A stretch of 64,000 nt of DNA. Source: Schmidtea nova (taxonomy: Eukaryota). The stretch covers positions 333,064,001 to 333,128,000 of the forward strand of contig CM097882.1 of NCBI GenBank assembly GCA_044892505.1, written 5' to 3'. The first letter of the stretch is position 1, and the number at the start of each line of letters is the position of its first letter. Both the position numbers and the translations under genes were made by a program. Shown here in pieces: positions 5,708 through 55,900 of this stretch. The notes under the pieces were generated by a model. It was not told the origin of the DNA. It saw only the letters and a list, made by a program, of their open reading frames with translations, and made no database searches.

Positions 5708-5767
5708 GGTCAGAGTACATTAAATGATATTTTTTACTGAATTATAATTATTCAACATTATTTTCAG

Positions 5768-6218
5768 CCAATAGATCATAATGGATACTGTCATTTTATT
5801 ACTGCTTACTTGGGAGAAAACTTCCCTCAGTCAATCCGAGATAAACTATTTCTTTCATTTATGAGACGTCATTCGAACCTGGAGCTTTATAACTGTGAAC
5901 AAAACAAGGCAACCACATTAAAATCGAAAGCTATTGAAGATAATACTAAAAAGATAGTTTGCGAGAATAGAATTCGAAACAATAGTTTAAATGCAACTGG
6001 CACTAATGCAATATTGAGTAACTTTTCTGAAAGGTTAAGCGCTCTTGCTCATAGCTCCTCAATTTTAACATCAAAATCTATTTTTTCACCATATGTTTGC
6101 CACAAGAATTTTCAATGTTGTCAATCTTCAATTTCACATCAGAGATGTCGGACTCTGCCTCTTAATCATATCGATTCTACTTTTAATGTTTTCGGAAAAA
6201 AGTATAAGTCGAACTTAG
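5768..6218 (+). CDS. dgk: DGK exon: N-terminal domain ([31 protein letters not shown]...) plus linker
   Basis: Acceptor TTTTCAG ends at 5767, the frame is open, and donor AG|GTATTT begins at 6219 (phase 1). The peptide resembles the [30 protein letters not shown] motif of vertebrate DGK-beta. The exact 3' boundary is less certain. Confidence 0.75.
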
Positions 6219-23900: not shown

Positions 23901-26900
23901 AATCACTTTTCATTCCAGGATAAACCATGTTTAAATATTAAGATGTATGTCGCTTACACAGGTTTTACAACACAAATTTGGGAAAATGAAATTTATATTA
24001 GAATAACCAAACCAAAAATACTACATGCTCCACTGGTTGTGATTAGAGTCGTTTTTGTAGTTATCCCATGGTCTGATTGCATATTATAAATAATTATTTA
24101 TGCATGTAGCAAGCAGTATATAAACTTTAGCTTATAGCAAATTGAATTTGGAAATGTTGTAACTTCAAAAAGTACATGATTTAGTTTATTTCTTTGTGTT
24201 ATATCTATAGATGATTAAATATTAAATTAAATATTAAATTACCACAATTCGAAAATCTATTTATATACAAATAATATTCAAACAATTTTTATAATTCATA
24301 ATATTAAAACGAATTTTAATATTATTAATTCCCATATAACATTCCCCCGTCTTATTCGGCTCTCAACTCGAAATCGTCGTATAATCGCGACTTCACATTT
24401 CTATTGTGTCTTTTCGGGTATCTTCCTGTGGTCTCTTTATTCTCTCCCGTCAACGTTGCTTCGTTAACCTCTTCCAATCTCTCCGATTCCTTTGTTCTTG
24501 ACCATATACTTGTTCCCCAAATGTCCGTCTCTATCTTTGCTATTTCTGATCTTTCTGGGATAATCTTAATCTGGTTATAATTACGCTGTATTTTCTTCCC
24601 ATCAGCCTCTTAATTTAAAAGTCCAATCAATTACTTTCTCCAGTATTTCATATGGGCCGCAATATTTCTCCCCAAATCCTTGTTTCTGAACTACTTTTAC
24701 TAATGCCGAATCTCCTATTTTGACGTCTGTATTCCATCTATTTCGATTGTAAATCTTTTCGTTATATACTCTCGCTTTATCAGTTTCCTTTTTTACTTTC
24801 TCTAATATGTTCGTTAACTCTGTTCTCAGTTTTCTCATGAATTCTACGTAGTCATGTGGTCTTATTATGTCGCTTGTTTCTTCTCTTACTTTTGGTGTTC
24901 TGCCGAACATTAATTCTATCGGTTTATATTCAGTAATTTTATGGACTGTGTTCCTTAATCCATATCCTACCGTGTGTACTGTTGAATCCTATTCCTTCGT
25001 CTTTCTGTCGAACATGGTGGCTGCCATCATACTTTTTGATGTTTGGAACATTCTTTCGATTAAGCCGTCAGATTGTGGGTAGTACGGTGATGTACAGATT
25101 TTCTTTGTTCCTATCAGACTGCACAAACCCTTAAACATATTTGACTCAAAATTCTTTCCTTGATCTGAGTGAATCCTTTCTGGTATACCGAATTTTGTGA
25201 TTCATTCTTCCCATATTGCTCTAGCCACTGTTTCGGTCGTAATTTCTGGGAGTAGTATTAGACATGGGTATTTTGTGAAGTAGTCAATTAATCCCAGAAT
25301 GTATCTATTTCCTTTTCTTGTCATTGGTAAAGGTCACGTAATGTGTATTCCCAAAATTTCTAAAGGTTTACTGCTTATAAAACTCTGTAGTGGTTCTCTT
25401 ACTCTTCCGTTTATATACTTGTGTTGACAGGCTATACATCGGTTTCCTCTATCTATAACGTTCTCGTTGATATTTGGCCAATAGTATCTTTCTTTGGCTG
25501 CTCTCGTGGTTCTTTCAATGCCGACATGTCCCAATTCCCGATGTAACTCGTCAATATATCTATTTCTTTCTTCTTCTGGTAGTATTTTCCTATGTCCTTC
25601 TGCTTTTTTAATCATAAGATTTCCTTCGCTGACATACATAAGCTCCGCTTTTCTCCATAGTTCTAAGTGTTTCCGGTTTTGTTCTTTTCTTCCTTGCTGT
25701 ATCCAATTGATTATTTGTCTAACTTCTGAATCCGTCTTCGTATTTATTTGACATATAATTCTTTCTGACTTGTTCTCTTCTATAGAATTGTTTTCTTCCT
25801 CGTAAACTTTTACATTTCGTTTCTTTCTTGGGTCCGCGTGTTTCAGTCGGCATTGTTCGCATGGTGTAATTCTTAACAATGCGTCCGCATTGCATTGGTC
25901 TTTCCCTTTTCTAAATTCCACTTTCATGTCATATATTTCTAGTTCTGCTTTCCATACACAATATTGAGAGGTGTTTGGACTACTCCAATCTAATAACCAT
26001 TTAAGTGCCGGATGATCTGTTCTTACTGTGAACTTTTTACCTACTAAATAATACTTGTATTTTAATACAAATGTGTAAATTGCCAAAGGTTTCTTGCGTG
26101 TGATAGAGTATTTCCTCTGCGTTTTCGTCATAGTTTTCGACCCATACGCAATAACTCTATCCTTCTCATCTTGGATTTGAGACAGGACGGCCCCTATTGA
26201 ATCGTTAGACGCGTCTCGTGTCTAAAACGTAGTATCCATCTGTAGTTGGTAATGCTAATATTGGCGGTGATAGTAAAGCCTGTCTTAATCTCTCGAACGA
26301 TCCTTGTCTTTCCTCCGTTCATTTAAATTTGTTTTCTGTTCGAAGCATTTCGTTTAAAGGTTCTGTCGTCTTAGCGTAGCCTTTAATGAAGTTTCTGTAA
26401 TATCCCGTCATACCTAGAAATGTCCTTAGCTCTTTCTGACACATTGGCTTCTTATATTCTCTTATCGCTTTGGTTTTGTCTGGGTCCGTCTGTACTCCTT
26501 CGTTTATAATGTGTTCCAAATATCTTACCTCGTTTTTTAGTAAGTGGCATTTCTCCGGTGATATATTTAGTCCCGCTTCTCTCATCTTCTGTAGTACTCT
26601 ATCTAATCTTTTGTTGTGTTCTTCAATTGTTTTCACGAATACCAGAATATCGTCTAAATATATCACACAGTTAGTCCAGTTCTCTCCTCTCAAGACCTCG
26701 TTCATTATTCTTTGAAATGTTGCTGATGCGGCACATAATCTGAATGGCATTCTTGTGAACTCGTATTGGCCGAATCTCGTGCTGAATGCTGTTTTCCTTA
26801 TATTCTCTTCTGCGATTGGAATTTGATAGTATCCACTGGACATATCTAATGTGGAAAAGAATTTTGTGTTTCCGATCGTATCAAAGACTTCGTTTGCTGA

Positions 26901-29900
26901 TGATATTGGAAATATTGCTCTTTCTGTTTTTGCATTTAAAGCTCTGTAGTCGATGCACATTCTCATGTCCCCATTCTTTTTTTTAATTACCACTATGGGA
27001 AAGTTCCATGGTGAATTGCTTTCTCTAATAATTCCCGCTTCTTCCAATTCTGTAATGTATCTTCTCACATCTTCCTCCAATCCCCTTGGTATCCTTCTAT
27101 GTTTGAATGCTATCGGTGTTGTTTTCCCGTTTCTATGGTGTGTTGTCCCACATTTGTCTTCCCAATATCCATTTTGTAACTACTGAATACATCTTTGTTC
27201 CGCCATAAAATTTGTGTAATCTTCTGTTTTTCTGTTATTGTTAATCTATCGTCTAGCTTGTTTATCAACCCTTTCACAATTCTGTCTATACTTCTCTTTT
27301 CTTTGTTTTGGTCGACTGTTGACAATTTCATCAACGTGTTATTTTTCTCCTCCTTGTCCGTCTATTTTTCCGCTTCTCCCAGTGTTGTTCCTGTATGTAG
27401 ACTTTTCATTTCTTCTTCCTGCATATTAATTCGGACCCAAATCAATCAATCGGAACATGTTGCTAGTCCGTCTGCTACCAGTATACCTCTTTCCTCCATC
27501 TTGCTCTTTTTTCCTGTAAATAAACAATTAGTTACGTCTTCCTTTATCCTCTCGTTCTCCTTATCTACTATCATCCCTTTGATCCAATATTCTCCCTCTC
27601 CTTGTAATGTCACATTTTCTGCTACCACTACTTTTCTCGTTTCTTCTTCCGTCCCTTTAACTAGTCTTCCCACTCCTGGACGTCTGAGAGTGGTCTTTAA
27701 CAGTTTAAAGACGATAGTATTGATGTCTTGGATAGAAATGGAATTTGAATACCCTTTACCTTGATACAGTCTTCTGCCGGTTTCATTATTACTCCCAGTT
27801 CTTTCATGCATCTGAGTCCGATATACGCATGTGGGAATACCCCATTCATTATTTCGAATTTGTGTTTGGTCGTCCTTGGACCCAAACTCAGTGATAATAC
27901 TAATTGTCCTCGGCTTTTTCCTTTACTTCCATCTGCGTACGCTACTCTAACGTTTGAATCCCTGACTTCTATTGTTGAATCTTGTTGCATTATTTTCTTT
28001 GCCAGTTCCTCGCTAATGACATTCAGATCTGCTCCCGTATCGAATAGTGCTTTAACTTCTTCTCCTTGGATTTTGCAACAAATGATTGGCTTGTTGGTTG
28101 CCCTTTCCGATCGTCTTTGCGATATTACTTTTGTGGCTTTTTTATATTTTTTCCTTTGGTTTGTCGCCATTACCTCCGATAAACTGTGCCCACTTCTCTT
28201 CCATTGTTAGCTTACTTTTCATTGTCTTCTTTTCTTTTTGTGTAATCGCTTTCATAATTCGTTCTGATTGGTCGTCTTCTTCGTATTCGCTATCTGAACT
28301 TGTCCTTTGTACGAATACTCCTTCTAATTGTCGTACTCTTCTATGATCGTCCCTCTTGTTTGGGCATTCTGTACTTATATGTCCTTTTTTATTACAATTA
28401 AAACATGTTACCTTTTCTCGATACTCTCGGCAATTGCTCGATATATGTCCTGTTTTTTTGCATCGGAAACATCTTTCGTTCTTCTTTTCTTCGCAGAAAC
28501 GTGCAATATGACCGGTTTTGCCGCAATTGTAACATTCCACTTGTTGTCCATTGTGAAATTCTTTTCTACTTCTATCTTGGTTATTCGGTTCTTTTAAATT
28601 TTTTATAATTTCCTGAAGTCTCTTAATCTCTTCTCTTAATTCTTGTAACTCCAATGTGGCATTTTTATCTACCCGCATTTGTGTACCGTTGTTGTTTCCT
28701 TTCGCTTGATTAATTCCTTTCCCGTCTCTTTATGCATTATAGCTCTCTTCTCGTAGTTGTGATAATCTGTATTATCTAATTATTTCTTTCTGGTCATCTT
28801 CTTCCTTTATTAGTTTGGCAGCTTCTTCTATGGTTTTGGGCCGCAATATTTTCAATGTATTTCTCATGATTTCACTTTTTAAGCCTTCTCTAAAGATCAT
28901 TAATTCTATTCTGTTTCGATCTTCTTTTGTGTCTTTCGTCGTTCTTTTTATCCGTCTACTGAAATCTACTATCGTCTCTCCTTCGTCCTGTTTGGTCGAT
29001 AGGAAAATTTTAACCTTCTTGACTCTTGACTCTTTTATTGGGAACATTTCTGTTAATGTTTTTGTGTACCACTCTACTGTGTTGTTTTTTTCTCCATACG
29101 TACTTTTTGATTCCACCTCGAATAAAATTTCTGGATCGAAATATCTTCTTAATAATCGAACTTTGTATGCCTCTTTCATCTCGAACATCGCCAAAAGGAT
29201 GTTATATTCTCGAGATGTGTCCTCACATCCCTTTTACACTTCTTTGTGTATAGATATAGGGATTCCTCTATCTGTTGTGCCAATAGATTTTTGACAAATG
29301 AATTGTCAAACGTAACTGTTCGTGACGCCATGTTATATTTATAGATGAATTAATCAAATTAAATAAGTAGGAATTAAATAAGTAGAAATTAGAAAATCTA
29401 TTTATATACAAATAATATTCAAACAATTTTTATAATTCATAATATTAAAACGAATTTTAATATTATTAATTCCCATATAACATTCCCCCGTCTTATTCGG
29501 CTCTCAACTCGAAATCGTCGTATAATCGCGGTATATATTAAACTTATTTACATTTGTAAGTAAAGTATTGTTCTAACCAATCGGGTAAAGTCATTATAAT
29601 TACCATAATTTCGTGATTGTAGTCCACAGAAAACCACTATTTGTGCATGTGAAAATTTAGATTATCTGCGCCATTTTATAGCTTATATGCATAAAAATCA
29701 AAAATGATAATTTGTTGAGAATAAATTTTCAATACAAGAACTTTTCTTTTTCAAAATTTTAATTAATTGTCTCATGCAAAAGTAGTGTAATTTGTTAAGA
29801 AGCTAAAAAATCATATTAAGGATTTACGTTATATTTATAACTTTCATAATTAATTTTAATCCTCTCAGCCCTGGTTTTTTTCGAAAAAAAATAATATTAT

Positions 29901-35024: not shown

Positions 35025-38000
35025 TGTTGGACGAAAACTAAATCCAATTAATTTGGAAGCGAGAGAGAACATAGTATTTAGAAACTATGCAAGAATTTTA
35101 ATTAAATATCTGAGCGAACACCAAATAAACAAAAATAATTAGAAGCAGAGAAAAAATTAATTAAAATAAAAATAAAATTTAATTTAAACAAGATTAAGAA
35201 AATACAAACAAGAGATATTAACAAAAAATTCATTAAAGAATTAGGTAAATATAAAAATTCAAAAAATCTTATAATTAATTATCTTAATTTTGATAGTATA
35301 TAAATGTGAAAAATGTAAAATTAAATTGTAAAAATATATATCAAAATTAAAGTAGTTAAAATTTATGTATAAATACAAAACTTTTATAAAAATAAAATTT
35401 TTTTGAGTAAAGAAATATTAAATGTAAAACTATAAACTTATTTTAGTAAAAATAAAATATTTCTTTTTTAGTTATATTAAATTAAACAGAAAAAGTATTC
35501 TAGAAGCTTTTGTTTTACTGCATCAATTAAATTAAATGCTATGAAATTGTCATAAATATAGATGCCATTTTTATTATTTTTAACACTTGAGAATTGAAAA
35601 AATTTTCGCGAAGAATCAAAATTCTTCCCTGAAATTTTGAAGATACTTCTAACAAAGGACTTACATATCTCACCAGTTGAAACGAAAAATATTCGGAGGC
35701 GTATCACTGGTCAAATTTTTTGAGAGATGGCACTATTCTGATTATACAAGGTATGCCAGACTGATACTTTGCTCGTCCTGTTATTTTATTCGGTACCGAC
35801 TCTTGCCCTAGTTATTCATATTGTTTATTGCTTCATTTGTTAAATTAATAATTGTTTTTCAATGACCGATGAATTCTCAGTCAAGGAGCAAGATCACTGC
35901 ATGTATTAATATGAATTTTTGGTCTTTGTTTGTTTTTGCTATGAGTATCTCCAGCTTATTGCGATCCAGGTACGTCAGTGTCGGTTCAAGAGTTGAGAGT
36001 GGATTTTCTAAACTGTTCAACCCTATGCTGTCAACGCGACATCGAAGTCCAGCTTCATACTTACGTATATTACGTATATTACGGCCGGAGGATCATGTGC
36101 AATGTTGTTATAATAAACATTTTGCTTCCTTAAATATATTTTGTTGTTGTTTAAAGTAAATTTTCTTTAAATATCAGGAACAATTTTTCTAGATATACAC
36201 TACATAAAGATGAGAAACATTTAAAGCAAGAAATATGATAGCGAGGTATTTTTGTAGATGTTTATGTAAAAACGATGGTTGAAAATGACAAAATATCAAA
36301 GATGAAACAGCTAAGAATATTTGTTTGATATATAAATAAGTATGAAAGACAAAGTCAATCACTATTGTCTATGATTTATGAAGTTTTCGTATGAATGATT
36401 AATCGTATATGAAAGTGTTCTAGTTTTTGTAGGAAAGATAAATGAATTTATTTAAAGTTTATCGCTTGGTAGAGTCAAGCTCACTTAGAGACAGATGACG
36501 ACAAAGTTTTTTAATTCACGATATAAAACAGTGATAAATTTACAATTATAATTCATTATATTTACCATTAGTATCAATGAAGAAAACAACTCACAAATAT
36601 TTTTTGAACATTAATAAAAAAACAAAAATCCAATGTTTATGAAATAAAATTCCACTCTCGAAATTGAAGAATCTATTGTTGGGATTGTTTGAAGTTCTTA
36701 AAAGCTAAAATACAAAAATTCAATATTATATCATGATAATATAAAATTCTAACAGTTCATTCAAGCGTGCTGATATTATCAGCTAAAATATAATAGTAGA
36801 AAATCAACTTAGGCTGGTAAGATTTAGATCACTGTAGTGGTCTAGAAGGTCGATATTGAAGTTTTTCTCAAAGTATTAAAGGAACATGGTCTGCCTCAAA
36901 CTTTCACTTTATTCAGTGATATTAGATTTTCAACAGTTCATTTTAATGACGAGTTAACTCCAAAACAATCAAAGCACTAATAATTGAAGCTTCAGAATGG
37001 TTTTGAAATCATGTAGATTGAAAATCGAACTTATCATGATATATGTGCTCAATTATCTTAAAATTGAGAAATTCCAAGTCAAAACAATTTGAATAATTTA
37101 ACCATAAATGTTTTTTTCAAAATTTTATATATTTGATAACTTGGTTGTGATGTTGGCTGATTTGTCGTTTCTGAATTGTTTGAGTTATCTTTTTATTTAC
37201 TTAAAAGAATATAATATTGTGTTTGTTTTAATATTTCTTTTGGATTAAATTCTTTTCCTTGAGTTAAAAATTTGTTTGAAATACAAATTCAGATTAACTC
37301 TTGTTTTTATATTATTGGATACAATATTGATGATTTCTCTCAAAATTTATTTTAAAACAGTCAGTTTTATTTTACTCCTGTTGATTTTTGGTTCATCGAC
37401 TGGCTTGTTTATCAAACCCTATCCTAGTGTTTATACACCATGTTTGGAACATTTAATATTATGCGAGAGCGGTGGATTAGATGGAATACCAACCGACCTT
37501 CATGAAGAAACAATAAAAGTTATTTTGGTTAGACATAAATGCTCTCAAACATTTCTCAGTCGGCAAAACCTTTCCAAATTCACAAAACCAAAATATTCGT
37601 TTGAAAAGTTGTCGATACGCCGGAGTAATATTCAGATTACTCGTTTCCAAACTTTTTATGACGCGAGTGATTTGGATTTTATGGATCTATCAGAAAGTCA
37701 GAAGTGGTATATTGGTAACAGAGCTTTCGACAATTTGAAATCAAAGCACCTTGGGCTCGATTTAGTCAGTAATTTAGAATTAAGCGAAGACACACTTCAA
37801 GGGTTGTTAGTAGCATCTCTGTCAATTGAAAAAAGTCAACTCCGAGCAATTCCTTGCAGATTAATTCAACCACTGTCCCCGTGAATTGCGAGCTCTGTTT
37901 TTATCGAATAATAAATTGATGAGTTTGATCTCGAGATACGATTCGGTATTTCGACAAATAAACATTCTTGATCTCCATGGCAAACCATTCATCTGTTCAT

Positions 38001-40949
38001 GCAATATGCTATGGCTGAGAAACCCATTTTTAGTGGGCCTAATGTTGATCCTACCATTAAATTGGGTTTCCGACCGCCTTGGGAGCAAATATTCGATGAT
38101 AAATTATCTAGACAACCACTACAGGACTGATTAGCCGGCGAAGTCGGCTCTATAGGTTTGGTTTGCCGAGATTGTGTAGTGATTTGCGGACGTTGTACTA
38201 TTAGATATCGACAAATCGATAAGGCAAGTTTAACAGCTTCGTTGTATAATCCATTACTGCGTAACGCTAGAACGCTGAGACCTGATAATGGCGATTGCTC
38301 TGGCCAAATATGTTTGACATCTTCTTTGTCATTGAAAATCTCTTGTAAATGCGGAAAATCCGAGCTCATATCAGCGGCCATCAAGGCTAAACAGTTACGA
38401 AGTAATGATGGTGATGACCTCATTTGAAATCCATTAGACCAAGAAGAATTTAAACAATCACGAATATAGTCATATTCAGGCCAGTAGACATACCTACAGC
38501 CTTTATACATTTTGGGAACACAATCTTCTGGGTGTATATAATTATCAGAACAAGCTACCCATAAACCTGGTCTAACAAATTGGCTAGGATGTTCTGGTCT
38601 AGCTACCATCCAGTATGGTGAAACGAATGTTGCCAAGTTGAAAAGAACTGTAGCAGCAGCTAGACATATAGCTAATTTCAAATTGAAAATCTTTTGGTCC
38701 ATTTTTTTGTACTTCAATTTATATATTTAAAAATTGAACAAATTCAAATGACTGTATTTAAAATCAAAAAATACAATTTTTAAATCTTCAAGAAAAATAA
38801 TAACAATCCTGTAATATTAAAACAACAAGTGTTTAATTTTTTTAAGGAATTTAAAAAACCAAATTATATCATTCAAAAATGTTAAATCTCTAAATCATAA
38901 ACAGAGAATTTAGTCCATAAGGTATAGAAAATTTTTTAGAAAAGAATTTTCTGGTTAAATTACATCAATTTTCTTTAACTTGAATTTTCTTAGATAATTG
39001 AGCAAATATATCATGATAAGTTCGATTTTCAATATGCATGATTTCAAGACCATTCTGAAGCTTCAATTATTAGTGCTTTGATTGTTTTTGAAGTTAAGTC
39101 GTCATTAAAATGAACTGTTGAAAATCTAATATCACTGAATAAAGTGAAAGTTTGAGGCAGACCATGTTCCTTTAATACTTTGAGAAAAACTTCAATATCG
39201 ACCTTCACATTTGATCAATAAATTTTTACACTACAGTTCAACTATTTTTTATGTTAATCCGGCGAGATACCGTAGAAACAATTCTCATCTGTATAACTCA
39301 GTTAATATTAATAGTACTTAACTGTTTATTTTTTATTCCCCAAAATTTCGCCAACACGGTATCATTATTACATTACCTGTTGATTCATGAAGAAACCCTT
39401 AGAGTCACTCTTAATTTCACAAGAATTGAAGACGTTATTTTAAGTTGTAATTATTATCTCCACACAAGCAATTGCTTCGTAATCAGTACAACCGTAAGAA
39501 AATAGATTTGCATTTAACTCATATTTAATACAGAACTATTAGATTGATGAAAATGTAATATAACGAAGCAAGATAATTAAAATATTTAACAAATATACAT
39601 TTTCCAATAATCATTTAGATAGATTAACACTTAATATGGTATATCTCTTAGTAGATCTATAAAAAAGATAAAGCATTATTGTGAAAGAAAAGGACCGAAC
39701 AATGAAATCAGCATATATCTTCTATCAATAGCTTTGAACCCATAGAATTATTCAATCAATTATAGCTCTGGTAACAGCACTCACTTTTTGAGATTTTTCC
39801 ACCAATAGTTACATTACTAATGTTGCTTGCGACGAGTAACTACTGATTTAACAGTAGTTATATTGTTANNNNNNNNNNNNNNNNNNNNNNNNNNNNNNNN
39901 NNNNNNNNNNNNNNNNNNNNNNNNNNNNNNNNNNNNNNNNNNNNNNNNNNNNNNNNNNNNNNNNNNNNNNNNNNNNNNNNNNNNNNNNNNNNNNNNNNNN
40001 NNNNNNNNNNNNNNNNNNNNNNNNNNNNNNNNNNNNNNNNNNNNNNNNNNNNNNNNNNNNNNTATTGTTATTTTTATTACTGCTGTTATCATTATTAATA
40101 TTGTTATTGCATTTATTCTGGCGGGTGCCCTTGTGGACACCGGATTCCTGTGTTTTATTTTTGTCTGGCCCTATTGTTATTATTATCTTCTTCATGTAAC
40201 AGCCATGACAATAATAAATTAGAAATTAAAATTAATCAAAAAACGATCAATAACAATTACTATAGACTACAAAAAAAATAAAAAGTAATTGCCAAGCAGA
40301 AATTCATTAAAAAAGAAAACTGACAATATTAAATTAAAGAGACTACAAGAACAACTGAAAAATTTATTAAGGATACGGGAATATTCAAAGGGAAACTGAA
40401 AGATTTGAACAAAGTTAAACTAAACTCGGAAAATACCAACGACAATTGTGACTTAAAGAAGATTCGAATAAAAATAAATAGAAGTTGAAAAATGCCAACC
40501 ACAATAGCGACTTAAGGAAGATTCGGATAAAAATAAATTGAATTTATAAAACACCGATGACGATTGTAATTTAAAGAAGATTTGAACGACAAAAATTTGA
40601 ATGATAGAAATAAAGCTTCAATTGAATAAAAAAATAAATTACAAAATTAAAAAGTCAAAACTAGGAAACCAAAGATCCAAATAAAAGGCCCAAGATATAT
40701 TCATTATTATTCACTGTGAGTAACGTTTTTTATTCTTTTGCATAAATAAAGGTTATTGTTATAATTCGTTAATTGTTATTACATTCACCTACATACGCAC
40801 TCACGCACACAAAAGTAAATAACTGTCACCCCAACTGTCCCTACAGTGCTATTTTTTGGGAGACTCTGTTGGGCTCAACAAATTTCTCAAAACAAAGTGC
40901 AAACAATAACATACAAAATACTAAAAAAACCTACTACATAACCCCCAAA

Positions 40950-40984
<35 letters not shown>

Positions 40985-43900
40985 AATTTTTTATTTTGCT
41001 TGATTTTACTGCATTACTTATAGACAGAAAGACAGATCTACAAAATTTTACTTATATTAATTTTGTAAATCTTTTGATAGCCTCAAAGAAGATTATAGCT
41101 TTCAAAGAGGATTTAAACTGATAAGATATTAAGATATGGTGAAGTAGGCAATGGAAAGCCATTAGATATTTCTTATCTTTCTAAGAGTCAATTTTCAGTG
41201 ATTAATAATAGGTGATTTATTTTGAAAATGGGCAAGTCCAATTTTTGTTATAACGAGATATTTAAAAGATTTGCATTTCAAAAAATTTGAAAATATTAAT
41301 AAGCTCTAGAAGCTGATTTTAGTTTCTTTTGTAATTATAAATAATGTTAATTTATTATTCATTAATTTTTATTAAAAATGTCTTAAGAAAATAAAAAATT
41401 TGCCAATTGTTGGTGTGTTGTAGATTTCAAAAATTCCGATTTTTCTTTCTCTCATGCAGATCCTTTTTCGTTAATGACTACTAGCTGTTCATGGCTATTC
41501 TCTAGGGCAGTGTTTCTCAAACCGGGGTACGCGTACTCATGGGGCTACGTGAAGGATCCGTATGATATAAAGATATAAAGACAAAAAAAAGAAACAGGTT
41601 GCTAGATGTTGATCCACATCTAAAATTGAAATTATCAGACCGAGAGCCAGATTTTTTTGCGATTGTATCTGATCATACGCAGTATCACCCATCGCATTAA
41701 TCAGGGTCGGGTCAATAAATTTTGGCGTCAAAATAGCTTGCTTTTTATGCAAAAAAACTATTCTATAATTTTGACAGGAGGCCTAGGCGTCACTATATCG
41801 GACCGTCCCTGATAATAATAAATCCATATTATTAATATTTGTTTTTTATACAATATTTGTATATGCTTGTATATATTTTCGAACCCTAACCTATATTAAA
41901 AATAGTAATACTGTTGGGGTTATTATAAAAAGCACAAAAGTAACAAGAAATATCAAAATAAATAAAAATGCAAAAATTAATTAAAATTTATCAAAAATTT
42001 AAAATTAATATTCGCTGGGGGAAATGGGTATGGTTGAATGCGAAATCAAAAGACGAACCCAAAAATAATAATAGAAATTTAGTAAGGGGTCCCCAAAGAA
42101 AGTTATTTAATAAAAACAAACTAATTAAAATTAATTAATCGCTCAATGGGAAGTCCGAGACAATAGGAAAACCGAGGCAATGGGAAACCCGAGCGATGAG
42201 GAAAGCCCGAGCGCAAAGAGACCCGAGAGATCAAAGTCGGGGCAATTAGGAAAAATCCATCCGAGGGTAATTAAAATTATTTGTTAGCAAAACAATTAAA
42301 CCCGAGATTGGTTAACTTTGAGATATCGATTAAACCTAATTGCTATTTGCGAGAACTATAAAAGGCAGTGCAAAACAGAGGACGGGGCCGACGAGTTGAT
42401 AGTTAAAAAAAGGGAGAATATTAAAAAGTTTCGAAAACAAATAAAGAAAGATCCTGAAGAAATCAAACAGACAAAGTGAGAAAGTATCCTTTTAACTAAA
42501 GAGTCAAATCCGAATCCAACAGAAAGCGTAAATTGACCAAAAGTGTGTATAACAAAGATTGTAATTTGTGTTGATCGTGAATAAAAGATTGTTCTGTGTT
42601 GGGTTCAATGATTTTTATAATTAAAGAGCACGAGAAGTCAGGTCAGTAAACCGATCTTAACCAGAATAATAACCCAACAATATTAAATCCTACAATTTTC
42701 AGTAGGGGGTACACAGAGTTGGAAAATGTTTGCAGGGGGTACGCACTGGTCAAAAGTTTGAGAAACACTGCTCTAGGTCACAACACTCACATAAAACTTT
42801 ACTGTTCCTGCATCCGTGAATTACCCTAATACTTCACGTTGGAAATGTGCATAACAGCCTATCGCAAATCAGCAGGTGAGCTGCTTTACAAGAACTACTC
42901 CTGATTTGTCTCATCGTTCGGGTTCTACTTGACCTATAGGAGGTCTTCTCACTATAACTCCTCAACCGGTCGCTGGTCTCTCCTTCAGAGTGACTTACAT
43001 ATTCTAGCTCAACCTACACTACTTACCAGTTGGGATGATCTGTTCAATCTATTATTTACTTTGATTATAAATACGAAATACCATTAAATAAAACATAAAT
43101 ACAACAAGAAACCCAAATATATATTTAGATTAATTCGTAATTCCATACTAAATCTACACAATGTTAGCGTTTCTCTCCTCTGGTTTGGTCCGAATCTTCT
43201 GGCGCATGCTCCGACGCGGACACTTATTTCTGCCTCAGTTTTTGTCTCCTTTGGGCGTGAGATTTTCGGCGGCTCCTTGCCTTTATCGTTGTAGACTTCA
43301 TCGCTATCTCCTTTGTTTCCCCCTAAATCTGGCACTGAGAACCACTTCTAGAGTGTCAAAGGTCTAACTAGATCGGTTAACTGTGTGACCACGAAATTCT
43401 GAGTAATGATCCACCGACAATTGTTGTTCTCAATCCTCACCGCTTCTAACTCAACTCGTTGATCTTCGATAGTTCTAGTCGCCTTGTGCAAGCTTTTTCT
43501 TACTACTTTCATCTCGACAGGTGAAAAGTAACTCTCCTCTAACTCTATGATTCGTCGTTTCAGTTTTCCAATCGTTTTCTCATCTGCTGACATAGTTTAC
43601 CTTGAAATTATAAATATTACATTGCATTCTATACTACCATCACTCTTCTGTCGTTGGTTCCTCGGTTTCGACTTCTGTCACTATACAAAACGATATTATG
43701 GTTGGCTCTATCCTGCCCTGTTTTCCTTAGTTATTTAACACTACTCTCTTTACTTTGGTTCGCCGGCCTATGGGAGGACTTAACATTCATTCAACCCAAA
43801 AAAACAAAGAACTAAAAACAAACAAAATTTGGGTACCCCCACGTATAATAACTGCACCAAACTTAAGTCGGAAAATTCAACAACACAATTAATTAATATT

Positions 43901-46900: not shown

Positions 46901-49900
46901 TCGTTAAGTAAAACTATCTTTTTACTAATTTTATGTTGATCTGTAGATTGTGACTGTTCAATATGTCGAGGACCGCGTGCAATTCGTCTGTGTGGCTGTC
47001 TCGATCAGTTGACACATCGTCGAGATATGCGAAAGTGTGACGGATGTCACGAAGAATTGTGTCCATGAAGCGTTGTAAGGACTGAGCTGTATTTTTGAGG
47101 CCGAAAGGCATGAACATGTATTCAAAATTTCCAAATGGCGTAGTTACTGCTGTTTGGGGGACGTTGTCGATACGGATGGGAAATTGATGGTACGCTTTTG
47201 AGAGGTCTATAGTTGAGAACATGGTAGATTGTGAAAAGCGTGTTATTAAGTCTTTTATGAGTGGCGTTGGGTATGCGTCGTGGTTCTGTTACTTGGTTGA
47301 GTTGTCGATAATCTCCACAGAGTCTGAAAGATCCGTCTTTCTTTGTGACTAAGTGTATTGGCGGAGTCCATGGTGAAGATGAACGACATATAATGCCTGC
47401 GTTTTCTAGACTAACTAATTCAGATTTGACTGCATCGAGTTTGGTGGAAGAGAGAAATCTGGCTCGATTTTGTTGTGGTATGCATGGTAATGTGTGAATA
47501 TAGTAAAGTTGATAGGGTTGTGGGTGGTCTGGTAGCGGATTTAGTGATAAAGTTTAGGTATTTGATTGAAATTAATTTGATCATGTCGTTCATTGTGTCT
47601 GGACTGACTGTATGATCGATTTGCAACGTGTGCTCAGCACATGTCGTCGTAATATCCTGTTGAATAGAGTTGAGTTGTGGCACTGAAGATGTCTGAGTTG
47701 AAACTGTTACTATGTTCGGCAGTGAATTTGTCGCTGTATAGGTGCCGTCCTATTTTATAGTGAACAGACGACGGTTTTTGCAATCTACCATGATGGATTC
47801 TTTGCAGAAAAATTCGGAGCCTAATATTGGCTGGATCGTCTCTGCTATGTGGAAAGTTTGAGTGAAAGTTGAGTCTACTGTTGGTATTGTGAATGAAAGT
47901 TTTTTTGTTCCCAAAAATTGAATTGGTGTGCTATTGGCAGCCAATAGTGAACGGAGATTTGAAGTCTGGCCTAAAAGTCGTTGGAAGTATTGAAAATGAT
48001 GAGCCGGAATCGATGAGAAAATGAATTGATGAGCTAGAATCAAAAGTTTCTTCAACAGTGAAGATGTTGTTGATCGCAAGGACGCCGCCTGAAAATCCAG
48101 GGTTGACAAACAGCGAAGCTGGTTTTTATTGGGAGAATCGGGATAATTATTGTCGTGTTATTCTTTTGATAAACGGCTTACGAAAGTGCAACCAGGAAGA
48201 CATTTTTGTGCGTGGAAACTGAAGATGTTGTGGTAGATACAAATGGGGATGAACCTCAGAGTTGAAGGAAAATTTGGCCATGAACATCCGATATGATATG
48301 TTCTGGCTGCAGATGAAAATATCTTGTAAAAAAAATAAGTCAGAGAAGGAAAGGATTTTGATTTGTCGCTTCTTTGGTAATATGAATTTTGTTGGGAGGA
48401 ATTATGTATTTTCTATTTGTAAAGATTTGTTTGAATACTCAGAAATTTGAGTAAAATAGATTTTTAAAATAAAGCGTGATTTTCTTGTCTTTATAGAAAC
48501 AACAAGCTATCGCGGCAATAATGGACAAGATGATCCCAATTTTCAGAGGAGAAGGCGATGTTCAACAGTGGATTCAAAAAGTGAAGCTAGTGGCAAAAAT
48601 TCAGAAAATCGCGGATTTAGAATCAATTATTCCATTATACCTAGATGGGCCAGCTTTCGCTGTATATCAGCACTTGAGTGCGGAAGACAAGGGCAACGCA
48701 TTGAAGATCGAACATGCTCTAATCGATGTCTATTCCATAGATATGTTCCAAGCATATGACCGATTCCGTGAACGAAAGTGGTGCAATGAGCCAGTCGATG
48801 TATATTTGAATGATCTCAAAAACTTAGCATCATTGGCCAAGATAGATAATGAGATTTTAATTAAAACGCATTCATTATGGGTTTGCCAACAGCAACGTCA
48901 CAACAGTTACGATCCTATGCCAAAATTCAGCAGATGTCTCTTGTTGATGTTTTGAAGCAGTCCCGAGTTTTAGTAAACTGCAACACTATGGAACTATGTT
49001 CGGCTGTTGTGGGAAAACAAGACAAGCATAATAAATGTTTATATTGCGGAAAGAATGGCCATATAGAAGAACGTTGCTTTAAGAAACAAGGAAGGAAGTG
49101 TTGGCGGTGTGAAGAAGAGGGACACATTGCAAAGGAGTGCACCAAAAATTTAGAGTCGGGAAACGGAAAAGGAGTAACGCATGCGCCAGCGTCTACTCCA
49201 GCACGAATATAATGGCGCTTCAGTTTATTTCTGTCATGATCAATGGGGAGTCTGTGAAAGCATTGATCGACTCGGGATGTTCCAAATCAGTCGTGTAAGC
49301 CAGAATTGCGAAGAAACGATTTATACGGAATGGGAGTATCATGACTGCGGATGGATCACTAGTCGAGTGTATGCGTGATGTAAAAGTTCAACTGATTGTT
49401 GGTGGTAAATTATTGAGCGTTGATTGTGTCTCGTTGTTGAATCTACCACTAAATGTTGACATGATTTTAGGAATGGACGTAATAGGGATGCTTGGTGGTC
49501 TTAAAATTGACAAGACTGGTGTATCTTTTCCAGGTATTGCAGATGTATCGTGCGTGGCTGAGATGTTGGATCAGTCAAATGAGAATGTGCGAATTGAAGA
49601 TGGTGATTTTTCAGCAGTATTCAGTGATAGCAAGTGGACCGTAAAGTGGAAATGGAAAGCAGAACCAGTTGTACTATTGAATAGAATTTCAAATTACAAA
49701 ATCGATCCAGGGCTACAGATCAAGTTTGATACGGAGGTTGAACGGTGGATTCAAGAAGGATGGCTAATTCCAACGAAAGACGTCGCGTATGGAAAAATCC
49801 CGTTATTAGCAGTAGAGCAAATAAACAAAGGAAAAGTTCGCCCGGTAATGGATTTTCGGGAACTAAATAAATATGTTAGTAGTCATACTGGACAAAGTGA

Positions 49901-52900
49901 CGTATGTGGCGAATCATTAAGGCGATGGCGAATGATGGGCGAACAGGTTACATTAATTGATCTTAAAAATGCTTATCTTCAGATCCATGTTGAAAAAGAC
50001 CTATGGGAGCATCAAAGGGTTAGTTTCAAAGGGAACGGATACTTTCTCACGAGACTCGGTTTTGGTTTAAATGTGGCTCCAAAAATAATGTCAACAATAG
50101 TACGAAAGGTATTACGTTTAAGAGAAGACATCAGGAAAGCAACAGACAGTTATATTGACGACATTATTGTCGACCAGTCGAGAATAAACGTCAATGAAGT
50201 AATAAGCCATTTGGCAACATACGGGCTAATTACAAAGCCACCTGAAGAGTTTGATAATGCAAGAGTGCTCGGTCTCCAGCTTCAAACGAGTATTAACGGT
50301 CGTACGTGGCACCGTGGAAACATTTTGCCAGACAACGAGTTTACAGACATGTCAAGAAGGGAGTTATTTTCACTCTGCGGACAACTCGTTGGGCACTATC
50401 CAGTTGCTGGATGGTTGAGAGTAGCGAGTAGCTATATAAAACGACACAGTGCTGGTAGTAAGTGGGATGACTCAATTGGAAAGATCGCGTTAAGAATGGT
50501 CAACGAAATGATGTATCGTGTGAAAGAAAGTGATCCGGTGTCTGGTGAGTGACACGTAAACAAAGAAGGATCTACAATTGTCTGGTGCGATTCAAGTAAT
50601 CTAGCATTAAAAGTGGTGTTAGAAATATCAGGTAAAATCGTCGAAGATGCATTATGGATGAGGAAGAAAAACGACTTTGCTCATATAAACCTTGCAGAGC
50701 TGGATTCGGTGATAAAGGGAATTAACTTAGCTATCAGCTGGGAAAGAAGCAACTTAGTTGTAATAACAGATTCCGATACCGTTAGGAGTTGGATAGATTC
50801 AGTTTTAACGGATACTTCTAGAATCTGAACTCATGGAATTGCTGAAATGCTAGTACGAAGACGTCTGCAGATTATCTGTGAATTACGAAAGAGTTATGAC
50901 TTAACGATCTCGGTTGAGTTTGTTCCGACAGATAAAAACAAAGCAGATGTACTCACAAGAGTCAGTAACAAATGGCTGACTTGGGTTAAATCGTGTGATG
51001 AACCAACTGTAAGCACCGTTGCTGTTATGAGCGAAGTGGTACGAGAAAGTCACAGACAGCATCATTTTGGAGCCAAGAAGACATTGTATTTTGCAAAGCA
51101 ACTTTGTCCAGACGTTACGCTTGAGGATGTTAAGGTAATAATCGGTGAATGTGTAGAGTGTCAATCTATCGATCCAGCGCCTGTTAAATGGGAGCATGGA
51201 GAGTTGAGCGTTAAGGAGACTTGGAAGAGACTGGCTATAGATGTTACATACTATCTAAGTAAGCTTTATTTGACTGTGATTGATTGTGGACCGAGTCGTT
51301 TCACTCTGTGGAGGGAAATAAGAAGTGAAGATGCGGAGACCATTACACGGAACCTTGAACAGATCTTCAGAGAACGAGGTCCCCCTGATGAACTGGTGAT
51401 CGACAATGCGACTTCATTTCGGTCAACACAAATGAAAGCATTGTGCTACAAATGGGGTGTAAAATGTGTGTTTCGATGTGCTTATCGGCCTTCCGGAAAC
51501 GGTATAATAGAACGAAACCATCGTACTATTAAACGTATGGCAGCCAGAACCAACAAGGGAGTATTGGACATGGTATACTGGTACAACCTAGCACCTAATG
51601 ACAAATGCGGAACGCCTCCATCCTCATCCGTGTTTTCATATTAGTGGAAAGGAGTTGGCGCACGTAATACAGAAGAGAAGACACAGTATACTTCGTTCCA
51701 AGTTGGCGATGCAGTTTACGTAAAACCACCAAATGCGAAATGCACCTCAACATGGGGTGAGGGGAGTGTAACGAAGGTAAATTCATCGACCAACTTCGAA
51801 ATCAACGGGATACCGCGCCACTATTCTGACATACGACCGGCTGTCAACGAAATGTCAGTGGATAACAACAACGATGAAGTACTAACAGGCGCTGATAATC
51901 CAACACTCGACTTATTGCGCCGTGATGAACGTAGAGGCAGGACCAGAAGACCTCGATATCTTGATGATTTTGAAACAAGTTTTAACGAGAACGAAGACGA
52001 AAATCACGGGGAGATGTAAAGATTTGTTTGAATACGCAGAAATTTGAGTAAAATAGATTTTTAAAATAAAGCGTGATTTTCTTGTCTTTATAGAAACAAC
52101 ACTAATATATGTATTTTCTACCGCTGATCATTTCGTCTCTAAATTAAGAACAAGGCTTGATGACAATTCCATTAATGCATTATGTTTTTTGAAATCCTAT
52201 TTCTTGAACAATTCGTAAGATTACTGAAAATTTTGATTAATTAAAGTACAAGTATCCTTTATTTATATCGAAATTATGCAAAAATCCTTGTTTAAAATGT
52301 TTTTTGTAAGTATTTTAAATTCGCACATATAGTTTTTTTGTAAAATACACAATTGTTAGAATCAAGAAGCTTAATCATTCCAAATAATTTATGTTTTTCG
52401 TTTTTTATGACTTTTAAAATAACTTCTAGTATAAATTTTATATTTTTATGTAATTTAAACGTACAAACCCATTTTTGATGTTTTAGTCATATTTTATCAA
52501 CCTTTTTTTAACTAATAGCGATTATAATATAAAGATAAAAATTCTTTAATAAACGTTTGACGGTAAATAAGATAATATAAAATAAACAGTAATTTATTAT
52601 CTAATATAACTTATTTAGAATTTTCTAGAAACTCCGGGATTTTTAATTTGAGAACCGCAAGATTACGGGATTGTAAAAAGTCGTCGGGATTGAAATCACT
52701 AGCCATGATGATTTTTTGAAAGTTAAAGTGTTATTTTTGATTATTTAAAGCAAAAAAACCAATTAATATAATATAACATTAATAATTTAATTATTAAATT
52801 AATGTCATTATTAAATTGAAAAGTATGAGGCACTACAGTCATCACATTATTTTTGCCATCAAAAAATTTTAACATGCTTTATTTCAGATGATTAATATTT

Positions 52901-55900
52901 TTTATTTTGTTCGCCTCTGATCTCTTCTTTTCTATTTTAGAAATTTCCATTTATTGTTTATCCAAAAAAGTTTTTAATTGTTACACTAATTAAAAAAATT
53001 GATCTATTGTCTTTATAAAACAATAAGTGATTATTTCACATGTGATAGACTGCGTTGCCCTCATATTTATTATCTCCATAAATTAAAAAAAAATTGGTGA
53101 TCTTCAAAAGTGTATTATTTATAAGTTATATTTAAACAATGTCAATCTTCTTACGGTAACAATACATAGGTAAAAAACAACAGGCAAATTCTGCAAACAT
53201 TCCATCATTTCATTTTACAGATATTTATTATAATTATAAATATTTTTTATACTTTGACCAATTATTATTCATATATAATGCTTATTAAACACTTAATTGA
53301 CTAATATTATACTTTTTCTTAAATTAATTACTGCATGAATAATTCAAAAGTTGAATATTCATCGCATCTTTATATTATTTAGGATTAGAAAATGAAAAAA
53401 AAATTAAAGGCTGTTCTATTCAAAAAAAAAATTTAAGATTATTTGTTATATCGCATGCCACCCAACCTTTCATTATTTGCATTATTATTTGTTTTTTCCC
53501 AGTTATTGGAGCATCATTGGATTGAAAACCATTATCCTGCAAAATGTATAAAATGCAAGAAGACTACAAAATTAGGGGCCAAATCTGGATTTCACTGCAG
53601 ATGGTGTAAAAGAACGATCCATAAATGCTGCATGGAAAGTTGGAGACCAACCTGTGACTTAGGAGACAACAAGGAACACATTCTTCCACCAATTTGTATA
53701 TATCCAAGTGTTTTGGTAATAGAAAATTGTTTTTATATTAATGATGATTTTTAAATGCAATTATATTTTTAAAAATGCTCTTTATTAGTTTTGGGGCATT
53801 GTCTTTTTTGATACAGCATTTCTTGACGAAGCAATTCGTCAAAATATGTTCATTTTGGCTTGGTAAATTTTTATACCTTCTGTATAAATATCTATTTGGA
53901 TGTTTTATGAATATTGAGTACAAATTTGGATTTTTGAGCAAAGAATTTTCAAAAATGTGATATGGTAAGGAAAACGTAAATAAGTCTGTTTTAAATTGAA
54001 TAATTATCAAGAAGAATAGTAAGATAGAAAGAGCTATGATTCTATTGTCATTTATTCTGAAGGTTTTGCTACGAATAAAAAATATGCCGTAGGTAGCAAT
54101 TCTAGAATAAAGGTTAAATATGGGAGATTCTTCAAAAAATGTAATAAATCGTTCGAATTTTTAGATGTTAGCATTCTTGAGGTATACCTGTATTTAATTT
54201 ATTCCCGTTAGCAAAGCTTTTTTTAATAATTTCTGATTCTAATATTAATTTGGATACTTTTTTACTTATAATGCTAATTCTACAAAAATTCAACAAAAAA
54301 TTATATTCTATATTAATCATCCTAATTTTTACAAAATTGCCTACTATCACTATTATCATAATTAATTAAAATTAAATAATTACACTGGGGAACATTGGAA
54401 ACTTTTTTTCGAGTGTTTTGATTTCATTATGTGATTCTGGTGTACTTTTTTATGCTGATCACGAATATGAAATCCGGTTTTCTCTATCACGTCCAGTTTG
54501 TAAAAACTTTTGCATTTACTTTTCTATGAAAACGACGTTTTTGCCCCACGCGTAATTTCTGTTCTTATATACACCCCATCTGTCCTAATTTAATTTCCAT
54601 CTGCAAACTTCCAAAACTGAGAAGAAGAACCTTTAAATATATTACAATATATTTACCTATAAGAAATACAGAGGCCATAATCTTACATGACACTCATACT
54701 GTGAGGGAGGTGATTAGTGTCTTTTACGAGCTTGTCTTTTGTGAGCAGAATTACCATGTCGTTTTAGACCCCAGCAGTAGTCAGCCATCATGCTCACATT
54801 CCAAAGGCCTTGATATCGCTGCTTCATTTTGGCTATATCTTGGTGAAACCTCTCACCTTGTTCCTCACTGTAAGCACCTAAATTATCGGGGAAGTAATCA
54901 AAGTGAGAGTGAAGATAGTGCAGCTTTATACTCATTCGGCAGCCCAGTTTCTCATAACTGTGGATCAAATTCTCGACACACTGTTTATAATTTTGAACTT
55001 TGTTGTTGCCTAGAAATCCCTCCACAACTGACTTGAAATCTAGCCACGCTGCTTTCTCGACAGAGGTCATTATTGTGGTGAAAGAGATGTCTTTCAAAAG
55101 ATCATGAATTTGAGGCCCAACAAATATACCCTCCTTTAACTTAGCATCACTAAGTTGCGGGAATTTTTTAGCAAACCATTTGAAAGTATTGCCTTGTTTA
55201 TTGAGCGCCTTAACAAATAATTTCATTAACCCGAGCTTGATGTGAAGAGGAGGAAGTAAAACTTTGCTGGAATCCACAAGGGACAAACTTTTCTGATTGT
55301 GTTGGCCCAGTGTGATTCTAGTGCGTTTTGGCCATTCGTTCTGTTTTAAATGACGGTCATCTGCTCGACTGTCCCAAAGACACAGAAAACATGGGTACTT
55401 GGTGTAACCACCTTGCAAACCCAAGAGAATGGCAATAACTTTTAAATCTCCACAAATTAGCCACTTGTGCTAATTGTACTTTAATGAGGAAAGCACAGTT
55501 TTCAGATTGTCATAAGTTTCTTTCATATGCACTGAGTGAGCCATAGGAAGCGATGACAGTTTATTGCCATTGTGCAACAAAACGTTTTAAACTCATCTTT
55601 GAGGCATCGATGAATAGTCGCCATTCATTAGGATTGTATGTGCCTCTCATTTGCTGAATGAGACCGCTGACATCATTGCAGAACACAAGAAGATCTCTGA
55701 AAGTAAAAAATCGAGTAAATTCTCTGTCACGGTTACGGTACCAGGCGTATGTAGTGTTAGGCATTAAAAGGTTTCCCTCTTGCAATCTTGACCCAAGAAG
55801 TTCAGCTGCTTTCTTGGGAAGATCTAAATCATGAACCAAGTCGTCCAGGTCTTCTTGAGCAAGCAATTGAGGAGCATTGGGTAATTCAACAATGAAATCT

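Follow-up and report, generated by a model that had tools for sequence, protein, structure and literature searches.

We found that the cassette at positions 36833-39206 is a pair of solo LTRs of one Gypsy retrotransposon family, standing tail to tail in a DGK intron, and that the LTRs of this family have an interchangeable 3' part taken from the 5' end of a host mRNA, with spliced CYRI/FAM49 cDNA in the 5' part. The captured piece lies in frame, and probably provides a membrane-anchored Gag precursor with its start codon and signal peptide. The DNA studied is a 64,000-nt window of Schmidtea nova (GCA_044892505.1, CM097882.1, 333,064,001-333,128,000, forward strand), and all positions are window coordinates, position 1 being the first letter of the window. 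A preliminary description had read 36845-39206 as a single cassette enclosed by an inverted repeat, possibly a TIR-type element; we dropped this reading, although the inverted arms and the gene pieces themselves are real.

Anatomy of the pair

The intron had been correctly placed. The DGK gene lies on the + strand, with a DAG_kinase_N exon at 5741-6259 and a C1 exon at 53437-53751, and its catalytic exons follow immediately beyond the window end. The pair and its surroundings comprise the following features:

35479-36832, no strand: left half of an older host repeat, the insertion target, from repeat comparison
36833-38026, + strand: solo LTR A, LRR subtype of the Gypsy family, without the last few bases of the family end
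36833-36840, + strand: 8-bp LTR head, the left integrase end, common to nearly all copies, whose flanks differ
36841-37141, + strand: left 'arm', spliced sequence from the 3' end of the host CYRI/FAM49 message, covering its last coding exons and 3' UTR (Pfam PF07159)
37285-38026, + strand: 5' end of an LRR membrane-protein mRNA, with short 5' UTR, ATG at 37330, signal peptide and LRRs
38027-38028, - strand: two junction bases, the usual spacer between LTR end and primer-binding site, which could be chance
38029-39206, - strand: solo LTR B, claudin and ZSWIM subtype, without the first 12 bases of the head
38029-38098, - strand: terminal piece of B, about 70 bp, common to B-type copies
38093-38395, - strand: spliced internal piece of ZSWIM4-8 mRNA, with an in-frame deletion relative to longer B copies
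38400-38741, - strand: 5' end of a claudin-like mRNA, with ATG at 38702 and an N-terminal hydrophobic segment
38848-39206, - strand: right 'arm', the spliced CYRI/FAM49 3' end in B, its inner part of an older subtype
39207-39862, no strand: right half of the same older host repeat, resuming where the left half stops, with 2 bp of overlap; in three paralogous copies the repeat runs through this point unbroken

The arms pair 36845-36965 with 39086-39206 (121 nt, 98%) and, further in, 36959-37063 with 38987-39091 (105 nt, 93%), and the earlier view of them as decayed coding sequence was apt, Pfam assigning them to the CYRI/FAM49 C-terminus. The parent exons of this piece, at G000:C2:260.069 and 260.077 Mb, are joined in the LTR across a GT-AG intron of about 8 kb. 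Two positions required correction: the left end is 36833 rather than 36845, and the cargo ATGs are found roughly 500 bp in from the respective ends, not about 200 bp inside each arm.

LTR A is 97% identical to solo copies bearing 5-bp TSDs, and the same head occurs in direct pairs around gag-pol. Its LRR piece, correctly recognised on the + strand (Pfam LRR_8, E 0.004), has two single-exon parents of 511 aa at C1:488.03 and 488.05 Mb, to whose ORF it is 89-90% identical in nucleotides. The piece is a 5' fragment with its own frameshift near 37877, which disposes of the alternative of an intact nested LRR gene. In LTR B the claudin-like piece likewise stands on the - strand (Pfam Claudin_2, E 0.003; Atlas score 0.95), and the frame is open for 224 codons from its own ATG to the LTR end. 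The ZSWIM piece is of ZSWIM4-8 type, with 91% nucleotide identity to a 947-aa exon that includes ZSWIM4-8_C in a parent at C2:47.174 Mb; the parent's upstream exon, about 9.8 kb away, is joined to it in relative L143. This piece had been placed in a shared middle on which the two flanking fragments converged. It belongs wholly to B, and the middle is the junction of two units at 38026/38027. The B subtype flanks gag-pol in copy L111, and the source of its terminal piece of about 70 bp (38029-38098) was not found.

A Ty3/Gypsy family with host mRNA pieces in its LTRs

The family is a Ty3/Gypsy LTR retrotransposon. Exact 16-mer LTR heads occur 485 times genome-wide compared to 2 for the control, so the arm is multi-copy, and its copies carry several host cargos, as the preliminary description had proposed to look for. 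Exact 5-bp TSDs flank 54 of 136 heads, against a mean of 1.2 and a maximum of 6 after shuffling. Direct LTR pairs, mostly 96-100% alike (one short match, 92%), surround gag and a pol with the order PR-RT-RH-IN, as in Ty3/Gypsy; the same TGG primer-binding site follows 17 of the 136 heads and the same G-rich (purine) tract precedes 18 of them. The LTR ends are TG...AA and not the usual TG...CA, which is typical of Ty3/Gypsy without defining it. The primer-binding site presumably resembles tRNA-Leu; a search for a matching tRNA gene found none, its one pattern match falling where no tRNA was called. Gag has two CX2HX9CX3C (CHCC) motifs, as in the CsRn1 clade, but the TSD is 5 bp versus the 4 bp of PwRn1, and we do not file the family as a CsRn1 member.

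Readings as a TIR/MITE, CACTA or Ginger element were abandoned on finding direct LTR pairs with gag-pol, and what looked like a second TIR tip at 39229-39235 belongs to the older host repeat. The Pack-MULE or Pack-TIR DNA element proposed earlier, with TIRs enclosing three gene pieces, would account for host sequence between inverted arms, yet it is now scarcely conceivable: the arm is the 5' LTR end, which stands either by itself, with a 5-bp TSD of its own, or paired in direct orientation around gag-pol, and no TIR pair bounds one mobile unit with a TSD. Nor does the spliced cargo fit capture of genomic DNA, the CYRI and ZSWIM pieces being intronless, a kind of copy that the Pack-TIR study excludes (PMC8277862). 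The A/B junction, moreover, occurs once in the genome in an exact-pattern search.

Across the family we recognised 11 lead cargo genes and three short new leaders, mostly from secretory-pathway proteins. A U2SURP repeat in the genome proved not to belong to the family. Spliced parents were located for CYRI, ZSWIM, PCMT and an L-type lectin. Searches did not find the claudin parent gene, parents of NOMO and several other cargos were not located, and word-based homologue searches gave no match; putative NOMO parents proved to be interrupted element copies. The eleven lead cargos have hydrophobic N-termini, a raw count in AT-rich DNA, which inflates hydrophobic residues. The short derivatives L077, L186, L190, L243 and L244 keep little beyond the hydrophobic N-terminal segment. 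PCMT is normally cytosolic. ZSWIM is not secretory, though it is an internal cargo.

At the LRR capture point, 17 of 20 positions agree between the parent and the LTR end with its primer-binding site, whereas microhomology at the PCMT and lectin capture points amounts to only a few bases, both as raw comparisons. The likely route of capture is a template switch during minus-strand synthesis, in which reverse transcriptase would leave the element RNA a few bases past priming, move onto a co-packaged host mRNA, copy it to its 5' end and then return to the element RNA; both new LTRs would therefore carry the piece. LTR-mediated retroposition in animals (PMC5131818) and maize Bs1 resemble this family in their spliced partial host mRNAs, multi-gene chimeras and further amplification, and perhaps in the short similarity at switch points. 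There, capture replaces the internal ORF between the LTRs and the copies are non-autonomous. In contrast, capture in the Schmidtea family lies within both LTRs and leaves gag-pol open, and the Gag ORF begins, in frame, with the captured piece.

Origin of the tail-to-tail pair

The preliminary description reported no TSD. A clean TSD is indeed absent around the pair. Even so, its flanks can be rejoined into a single empty site with a 2-bp overlap, and comparison with the three uninterrupted paralogous copies places A and B together at this single site in the older repeat. The two junction bases match the spacer of 17 LTRs that continue into the primer-binding site. We lean towards an origin in which the left ends of two cDNAs would have integrated at the same site, their right ends would have been joined to each other, and the right junction would then have lost 15 bp. 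Copy L025 is a second pair with heads outward and a near-TSD, which also weighs against a two-step origin. In that alternative, which we regard as possible but doubtful, A was a solo LTR with a 5-bp TSD, and an LTR-length B cDNA was later inserted into a break at the end of A, where it took the place of 8 bp. The missing full TSD favors two steps, as does the nearest whole relative, at 91-92% for B versus 97% for A; copies L018 and L186, each an LTR and longer primer copy followed by unrelated DNA, indicate that LTR-length DNA is insertable. However, the break would have to fall exactly at the LTR end, and B is 96-98% identical to segment-wise relatives, making the ages compatible. Joint integration of two cDNAs has a partial parallel in complex LTR insertions with one TSD, which also hold two elements per event; those are head-to-tail with a shared middle LTR (PMC1950507), whereas the Schmidtea pair is inverted.

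A misassembly of two repeat copies, to which a once-seen junction of two high-copy repeats might point, is highly improbable, since the two outer junctions agree to the base with a single empty site and the halves are different subtypes rather than mirror images. Reads were checked through contigs from four runs of one study. Contigs in runs X1 and X2 enter A by 29-30 bases from the left flank; across the four runs no contig bridges the A/B junction or covers 38080-38100 at 97%, although holes in such contigs prove nothing. A joint from 39258 to 38701 is present in contigs of all four runs, without explanation.

Identity between A and B declines inward as had been described, from 100% to 94, 69 and 61% over LTR positions 13-120, 121-230, 231-330 and 331-440. 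Because the unlinked copies L061 and L062 show the same gradient against A (98, 95-97, 70-72 and 61-62%), there is no need to invoke the proposed arm-to-arm conversion; positions 13-120 are the same in nine unlinked copies representing both subtypes. Two sites within B's first 45 bases could reflect local repair. The suggestion of a template-switch product was right in spirit, but the switches most likely took place in reverse transcription, before this insertion. A hairpin could form in the DGK pre-mRNA, as the proposed dsRNA would require, but from the CYRI-derived heads only, with the LRR, claudin and ZSWIM pieces in the loop.

The Gag fusion frame and its predicted role

The captured piece continues in frame across the primer-binding site as one ORF, which on the far side encodes a spacer, a hydrophobic stretch, a ubiquitin fold ending in Gly-Gly, and Gag. 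The Gag-fusion frame is the longest terminal open frame in 69 of 72 LTRs and in all 9 newly fetched LTRs with a defined end, counts that leave out heads whose end is not set by an exact TSD or primer site (65 of 136 in the first set, 10 of 19 in the second). By cargo class it is longest in 15 of 16, and the exception has its Pfam lectin match in the Gag-fusion frame. Copy L173 holds one 921-aa ORF from the NOMO signal peptide through to Gag, and open frames of 900-928 codons hold 28 of 134 NOMO matches and 10 of 100 PCMT matches. Foldseek identified the ubiquitin fold (E 5e-4), and a PDB sequence search returned the parkin UBL only (E 1.8). With all pairs sharing one reference copy, pN/pS was 0.20 for the ubiquitin domain versus 0.25 for Gag and pol, and near neutral for the spacer (0.78) and hydrophobic stretch (0.75). 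Of 16 N-glycosylation sequons, 14 fall in the predicted lumenal part, partly through composition.

LTR identity, the splicing of the located multi-exon parents, the frame and the domain order are observed; the role that we consider somewhat more probable than its alternatives is predicted from them. The Gag precursor would be held in the ER membrane through the borrowed signal peptide, in a type I topology that keeps ubiquitin-Gag cytosolic, and Gag would be released by a host deubiquitinase cleaving behind Gly-Gly. Because an ATG of the element itself stands at the primer-binding site, the leader may be dispensable. The same anatomy might, less plausibly, reflect passenger signal peptides, if particles assemble at the ER and take up mRNAs bound there, and if captures in frame persist only because an upstream ATG out of frame would block Gag translation. 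The near-neutral spacer suits passengers, as do relatives with ubiquitin-GG-Gag, mostly without hydrophobic N-termini (2 of 21 score hydrophobic), and Ty1 RNA, which is translated on SRP at the ER without a captured leader (PMC3945221). Yet deleted derivatives keep the hydrophobic N-terminus and lose the remainder, the sequons cluster in the predicted lumenal part, and Gag would be left in the cytosol only if a signal accompanied the internal hydrophobic stretch that precedes ubiquitin-Gag.

The ubiquitin-GG-Gag order recurs in relatives, a diverged ubiquitin fold being fixed before Gag across the clade. Three relatives carry H2A, cohesin or 5'-nucleotidase pieces. A metagenome scan for relatives' DNA returned three distant elements with the leader absent; the host pieces of P0005, P0010 and P0014 may therefore be fusions made by the gene caller. 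For the clade as a whole, we give roughly even weight for and against the proposal that it outsourced the start of Gag: the ubiquitin cut site would let Gag tolerate any N-terminus, and the LTR would therefore work as a trap for host mRNA 5' ends. In the Schmidtea genome the element would repeatedly swap in new host signal peptides for capsid building at the ER. New leaders would sweep in waves, possibly escaping small-RNA silencing of the previous LTR.

Known systems share parts of this arrangement. CsRn1-like PwRn1 has the Gag CX2HX9CX3C motif and PR-RT-RH-IN order, with a tRNA-Trp primer site and 4-bp TSD (PMC2582038); the Schmidtea family has a 5-bp TSD, a primer site presumably of tRNA-Leu type and a ubiquitin-like domain before Gag. 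Ty1 RNA is also translated at the ER, its proposed assembly site, but there Gag itself enters the ER (PMC3945221), whereas here a host-derived, repeatedly replaced signal peptide and predicted anchor precede Gag. MLV glyco-Gag similarly has an in-frame N-terminal extension with a signal that brings a Gag form into the ER; that extension is virus-encoded, fixed, accessory and CUG-initiated in the leader (PMC3042739), in contrast to a host-derived, variable leader that begins inside the LTR. Cytopathic pestiviruses with cellular ubiquitin inserts likewise use polyprotein ubiquitin as a cut site for host hydrolases, but sporadically and in an RNA virus (PMC8310069), while the Schmidtea fold is diverged and fixed before Gag and its cleavage predicted. 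MDG1-group elements, env-less LTR elements, have transmembrane coding sequence upstream of gag, but their sORF2 is a separate small fusogen-like ORF, neither Gag-fused nor host-captured (PMC11952523).

When an LTR element captures a gene, the capture is usually regarded as a by-product by which the element is disabled. In this family, the capture sits in the LTR, so that both ends and every solo LTR receive a copy, and in the youngest copies the Gag ORF appears to use the piece as a working part that can be replaced. The hundreds of CYRI and secretory-gene fragments scattered in the genome can mislead annotation and may feed small-RNA pathways. If the proposed role is true, the family would amount to a screen in which natural selection picks signal peptides, would allow ER assembly of LTR particles in animals to be tested directly, and would include a ubiquitin-based step in Gag maturation.

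Two solo LTRs in a DGK intron

The preliminary description treated window positions 36845..39206 as a single cassette with fragments of three host genes. Its inverted arms, its three gene pieces and its location in a DGK intron are all present in the window, but the stretch consists instead of two solo LTRs placed tail to tail:

36833-38026, + strand: solo LTR A, with an LRR piece
38029-39206, - strand: solo LTR B, with claudin-like and ZSWIM pieces

The left arm, also matched by Pfam CYRIA-B_Rac1-bd, returned 591 candidates from the genome (the 40 scored ones 95-100% alike), and the exact 16-base head, the first bases of the family LTR, occurs 485 times versus 2 for the reversed control. Many of 39 fetched copies match the left half (36833-38026) alone or the right half alone, the remainder having shorter or different cargo, and none of the 39 contains both halves; the A/B junction pattern occurs once in the genome. 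The gradient of identity between the arms, for which the preliminary description considered later conversion, is also found when A is compared with unlinked B-type copies and therefore reflects subtype mosaicism. What was flagged as a cassette is a pair of solo LTRs in a rare but passive arrangement. As for the dsRNA or siRNA suggested in the preliminary description, a hairpin in the DGK intron could form only across ~220 bp of CYRI-derived head. The joint from 39258 to 38701 is found in contigs of all four read runs at about single-copy depth.

Flanks left and right of the pair belong to one older repeat, unbroken in three paralogues, and overlap by 2 bases, so no host DNA was lost at the site. 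The first 12 bases are absent from B. One insertion with a 5-bp duplication, and a later loss of 15 bp between 2-base repeats, would fit these observations. We lean towards a single event for the pair, although a two-step alternative, with B captured at the end of A already in place, also fits. At the junction, the two bases match the spacer that separates LTR from primer site, as expected of an unprocessed cDNA end, but agreement over two bases can be chance. A second outward-facing head pair (locus L025:623-1312, contig position G000:C1:582.25 Mb) forms a 690-bp unit with a 4-of-5 duplication, MITE-like in appearance yet LTR-derived. At loci L018/L117:1770-1800 and L186, the LTR runs into an 18-base primer copy and then unrelated DNA, possibly inserted plus-strand strong-stop DNA. 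Other features of the window, all but the tandem arrays identified by eye, are:

27-758 and 48497-52016: the same retroelement integrase region and C-terminal ORF at each
11127-13063: transposase-like ORF
16563-19921, 24605-29233 and 46917-48157: further LTR-element remains
40400-40601 and 42144-42211: short tandem arrays, periods 59 and 17

A Gypsy family with captured host mRNA

The same 8 bases open, and the same 8 bases close, the copies of the family, and 5-bp duplications bound them (at 54 of 136 distinct heads, versus a shuffled mean of 1.2). Same-strand repeat pairs ~6.5-7 kb apart enclose DUF7041 Gag and PR-RT-RH-IN; a fixed TGG site follows the first repeat, and a G-rich tract precedes the second. 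The repeats are LTRs of a Gypsy element. The family-wide terminus, judged from the duplication position, is AA, not CA. LRR, claudin and PCMT subtypes all adjoin the same internal region, LRR through partial matches only (loci L094, L098).

Directly after the head lies the 3' end of CYRI mRNA, from which an ~8-kb intron, and probably two further short ones, have been spliced out; the youngest (NOMO) subtype retains only its first ~40 bases. The variable 3' part (73 sequences, 18 clusters) carries LRR, claudin-like, PCMT, acid phosphatase, NOMO, L-type lectin, ZIP, tetraspanin, HeH/LEM-type and unknown cargo. Parents were located for CYRI, LRR, ZSWIM, PCMT and lectin, and those with multiple exons are present in spliced form. 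Every captured piece is in element sense, and the LRR, PCMT and lectin captures start ~40-80 bases upstream of the host ATG. Some cargo families we take to be VIP36, ZIP7 and RNF103, presumably with secretory roles. A captured piece of 194 aa, signal-like at its start and unmatched in Pfam, occurs at L157:429-1010 and at L229, L231, L236 and L242. PCMT is normally a cytosolic enzyme, for which a hydrophobic N-terminus is unusual; exon 1 of a host paralogue (L215-L217, G000:C2:155.14-155.20 Mb) codes one. Tandem 511-aa single-exon LRR membrane-protein genes at G000:C1:488.03 and 488.05 Mb belong to a larger family of ~500-aa ORFs.

We propose that the minus strand leaves its template within a few bases of the tRNA primer, continues on a co-packaged mRNA as far as that mRNA's 5' end and then transfers back, so that U5 would be replaced in both LTRs. 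Exactly at the switch point, 17 of 20 positions of the LRR parent agree with the LTR end plus primer site; other parents show little such similarity. Subsequent switches would land within cargo already present: the PCMT and HeH pieces terminate in the LRR tail, and claudin is joined to ZSWIM.

Reading frame and Gag fusion

In 69 of 72 LTRs and 15 of 16 classes, the frame that stays open longest at the LTR end continues across the primer site; a later batch of 19 heads gave 9 of 9 and added three short leaders. Same-class copies are not independent, and across the approximately dozen independent junctions we estimate the chance at roughly (1/3)^12. The frame is open in B and broken near 37877 in A; both are older subtypes. 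Locus L173 has a single 921-aa ORF comprising a NOMO signal peptide, an N/S/Q-rich spacer, a hydrophobic stretch (456-491), residues 508-581 ending in Gly-Gly, and Gag with two CHCC motifs; pol overlaps it in a different frame. Residues 508-581 have a predicted ubiquitin fold (pLDDT 64.5; best Foldseek E 5e-4, nearly all listed matches ubiquitin-like). Across eight copies versus one reference, their pN/pS is 0.20, similar to Gag and pol (0.25), and that of the spacer and hydrophobic stretch is ~0.75. The NOMO subtype spread recently, since LTR pairs of L173 and L178 are 100% identical and 28 of 134 NOMO matches lie within open frames of 907-928 codons.

The signal peptide is predicted to direct the spacer into the ER lumen and leave ubiquitin-Gag cytosolic, exposed to a deubiquitinase that would release Gag. 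The main rival attributes the pattern to ER co-packaging together with the requirement for an in-frame start, the signal peptide itself being irrelevant.

Relatives and a probable ubiquitin-Gag clade

Among the titles and abstract openings listed, none describes LTR capture of a host signal peptide with fusion to Gag, or a Gypsy element carrying ubiquitin-Gag; repeat databases may already list the family. Burro elements (PMC6431247) have a ubiquitin-like motif within a giant ORF, a different architecture. Related literature includes PMC5131818, PMC11952523, PMC11410931, PMC13317346, PMC8310069, PMC2582038, PMC8277862, PMC3945221, PMC3042739 and PMC1950507.

Among 1.84 billion representatives searched, 45 matched at E 1e-10 or better. 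From the top 47 matches we kept 21 with a recognisable Gag motif preceded by at least 90 residues and dropped 26. Each of the 21 has a ubiquitin-like Gly-Gly shortly before the Gag motif; the reading frame crosses a primer-site-like peptide in 5, and a hydrophobic stretch is present in 7 and a hydrophobic N-terminus in only 2. Three carry host-type pieces (H2A, cohesin or nucleotidase) in predicted protein sequences. Among the database relatives P0001-P0035, ubiquitin-like Gly-Gly precedes Gag, and P0019 has near-true ubiquitin; by eye, P0014 starts with histone H2A, and P0025 and P0030 with Hsp90-like and actin-related pieces. Ubiquitin-Gag looks clade-wide from these predicted proteins, and the signal-peptide bias is seen in this genome only. 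The family is a Gypsy element with a replaceable, host-derived, in-frame leader in its LTR.
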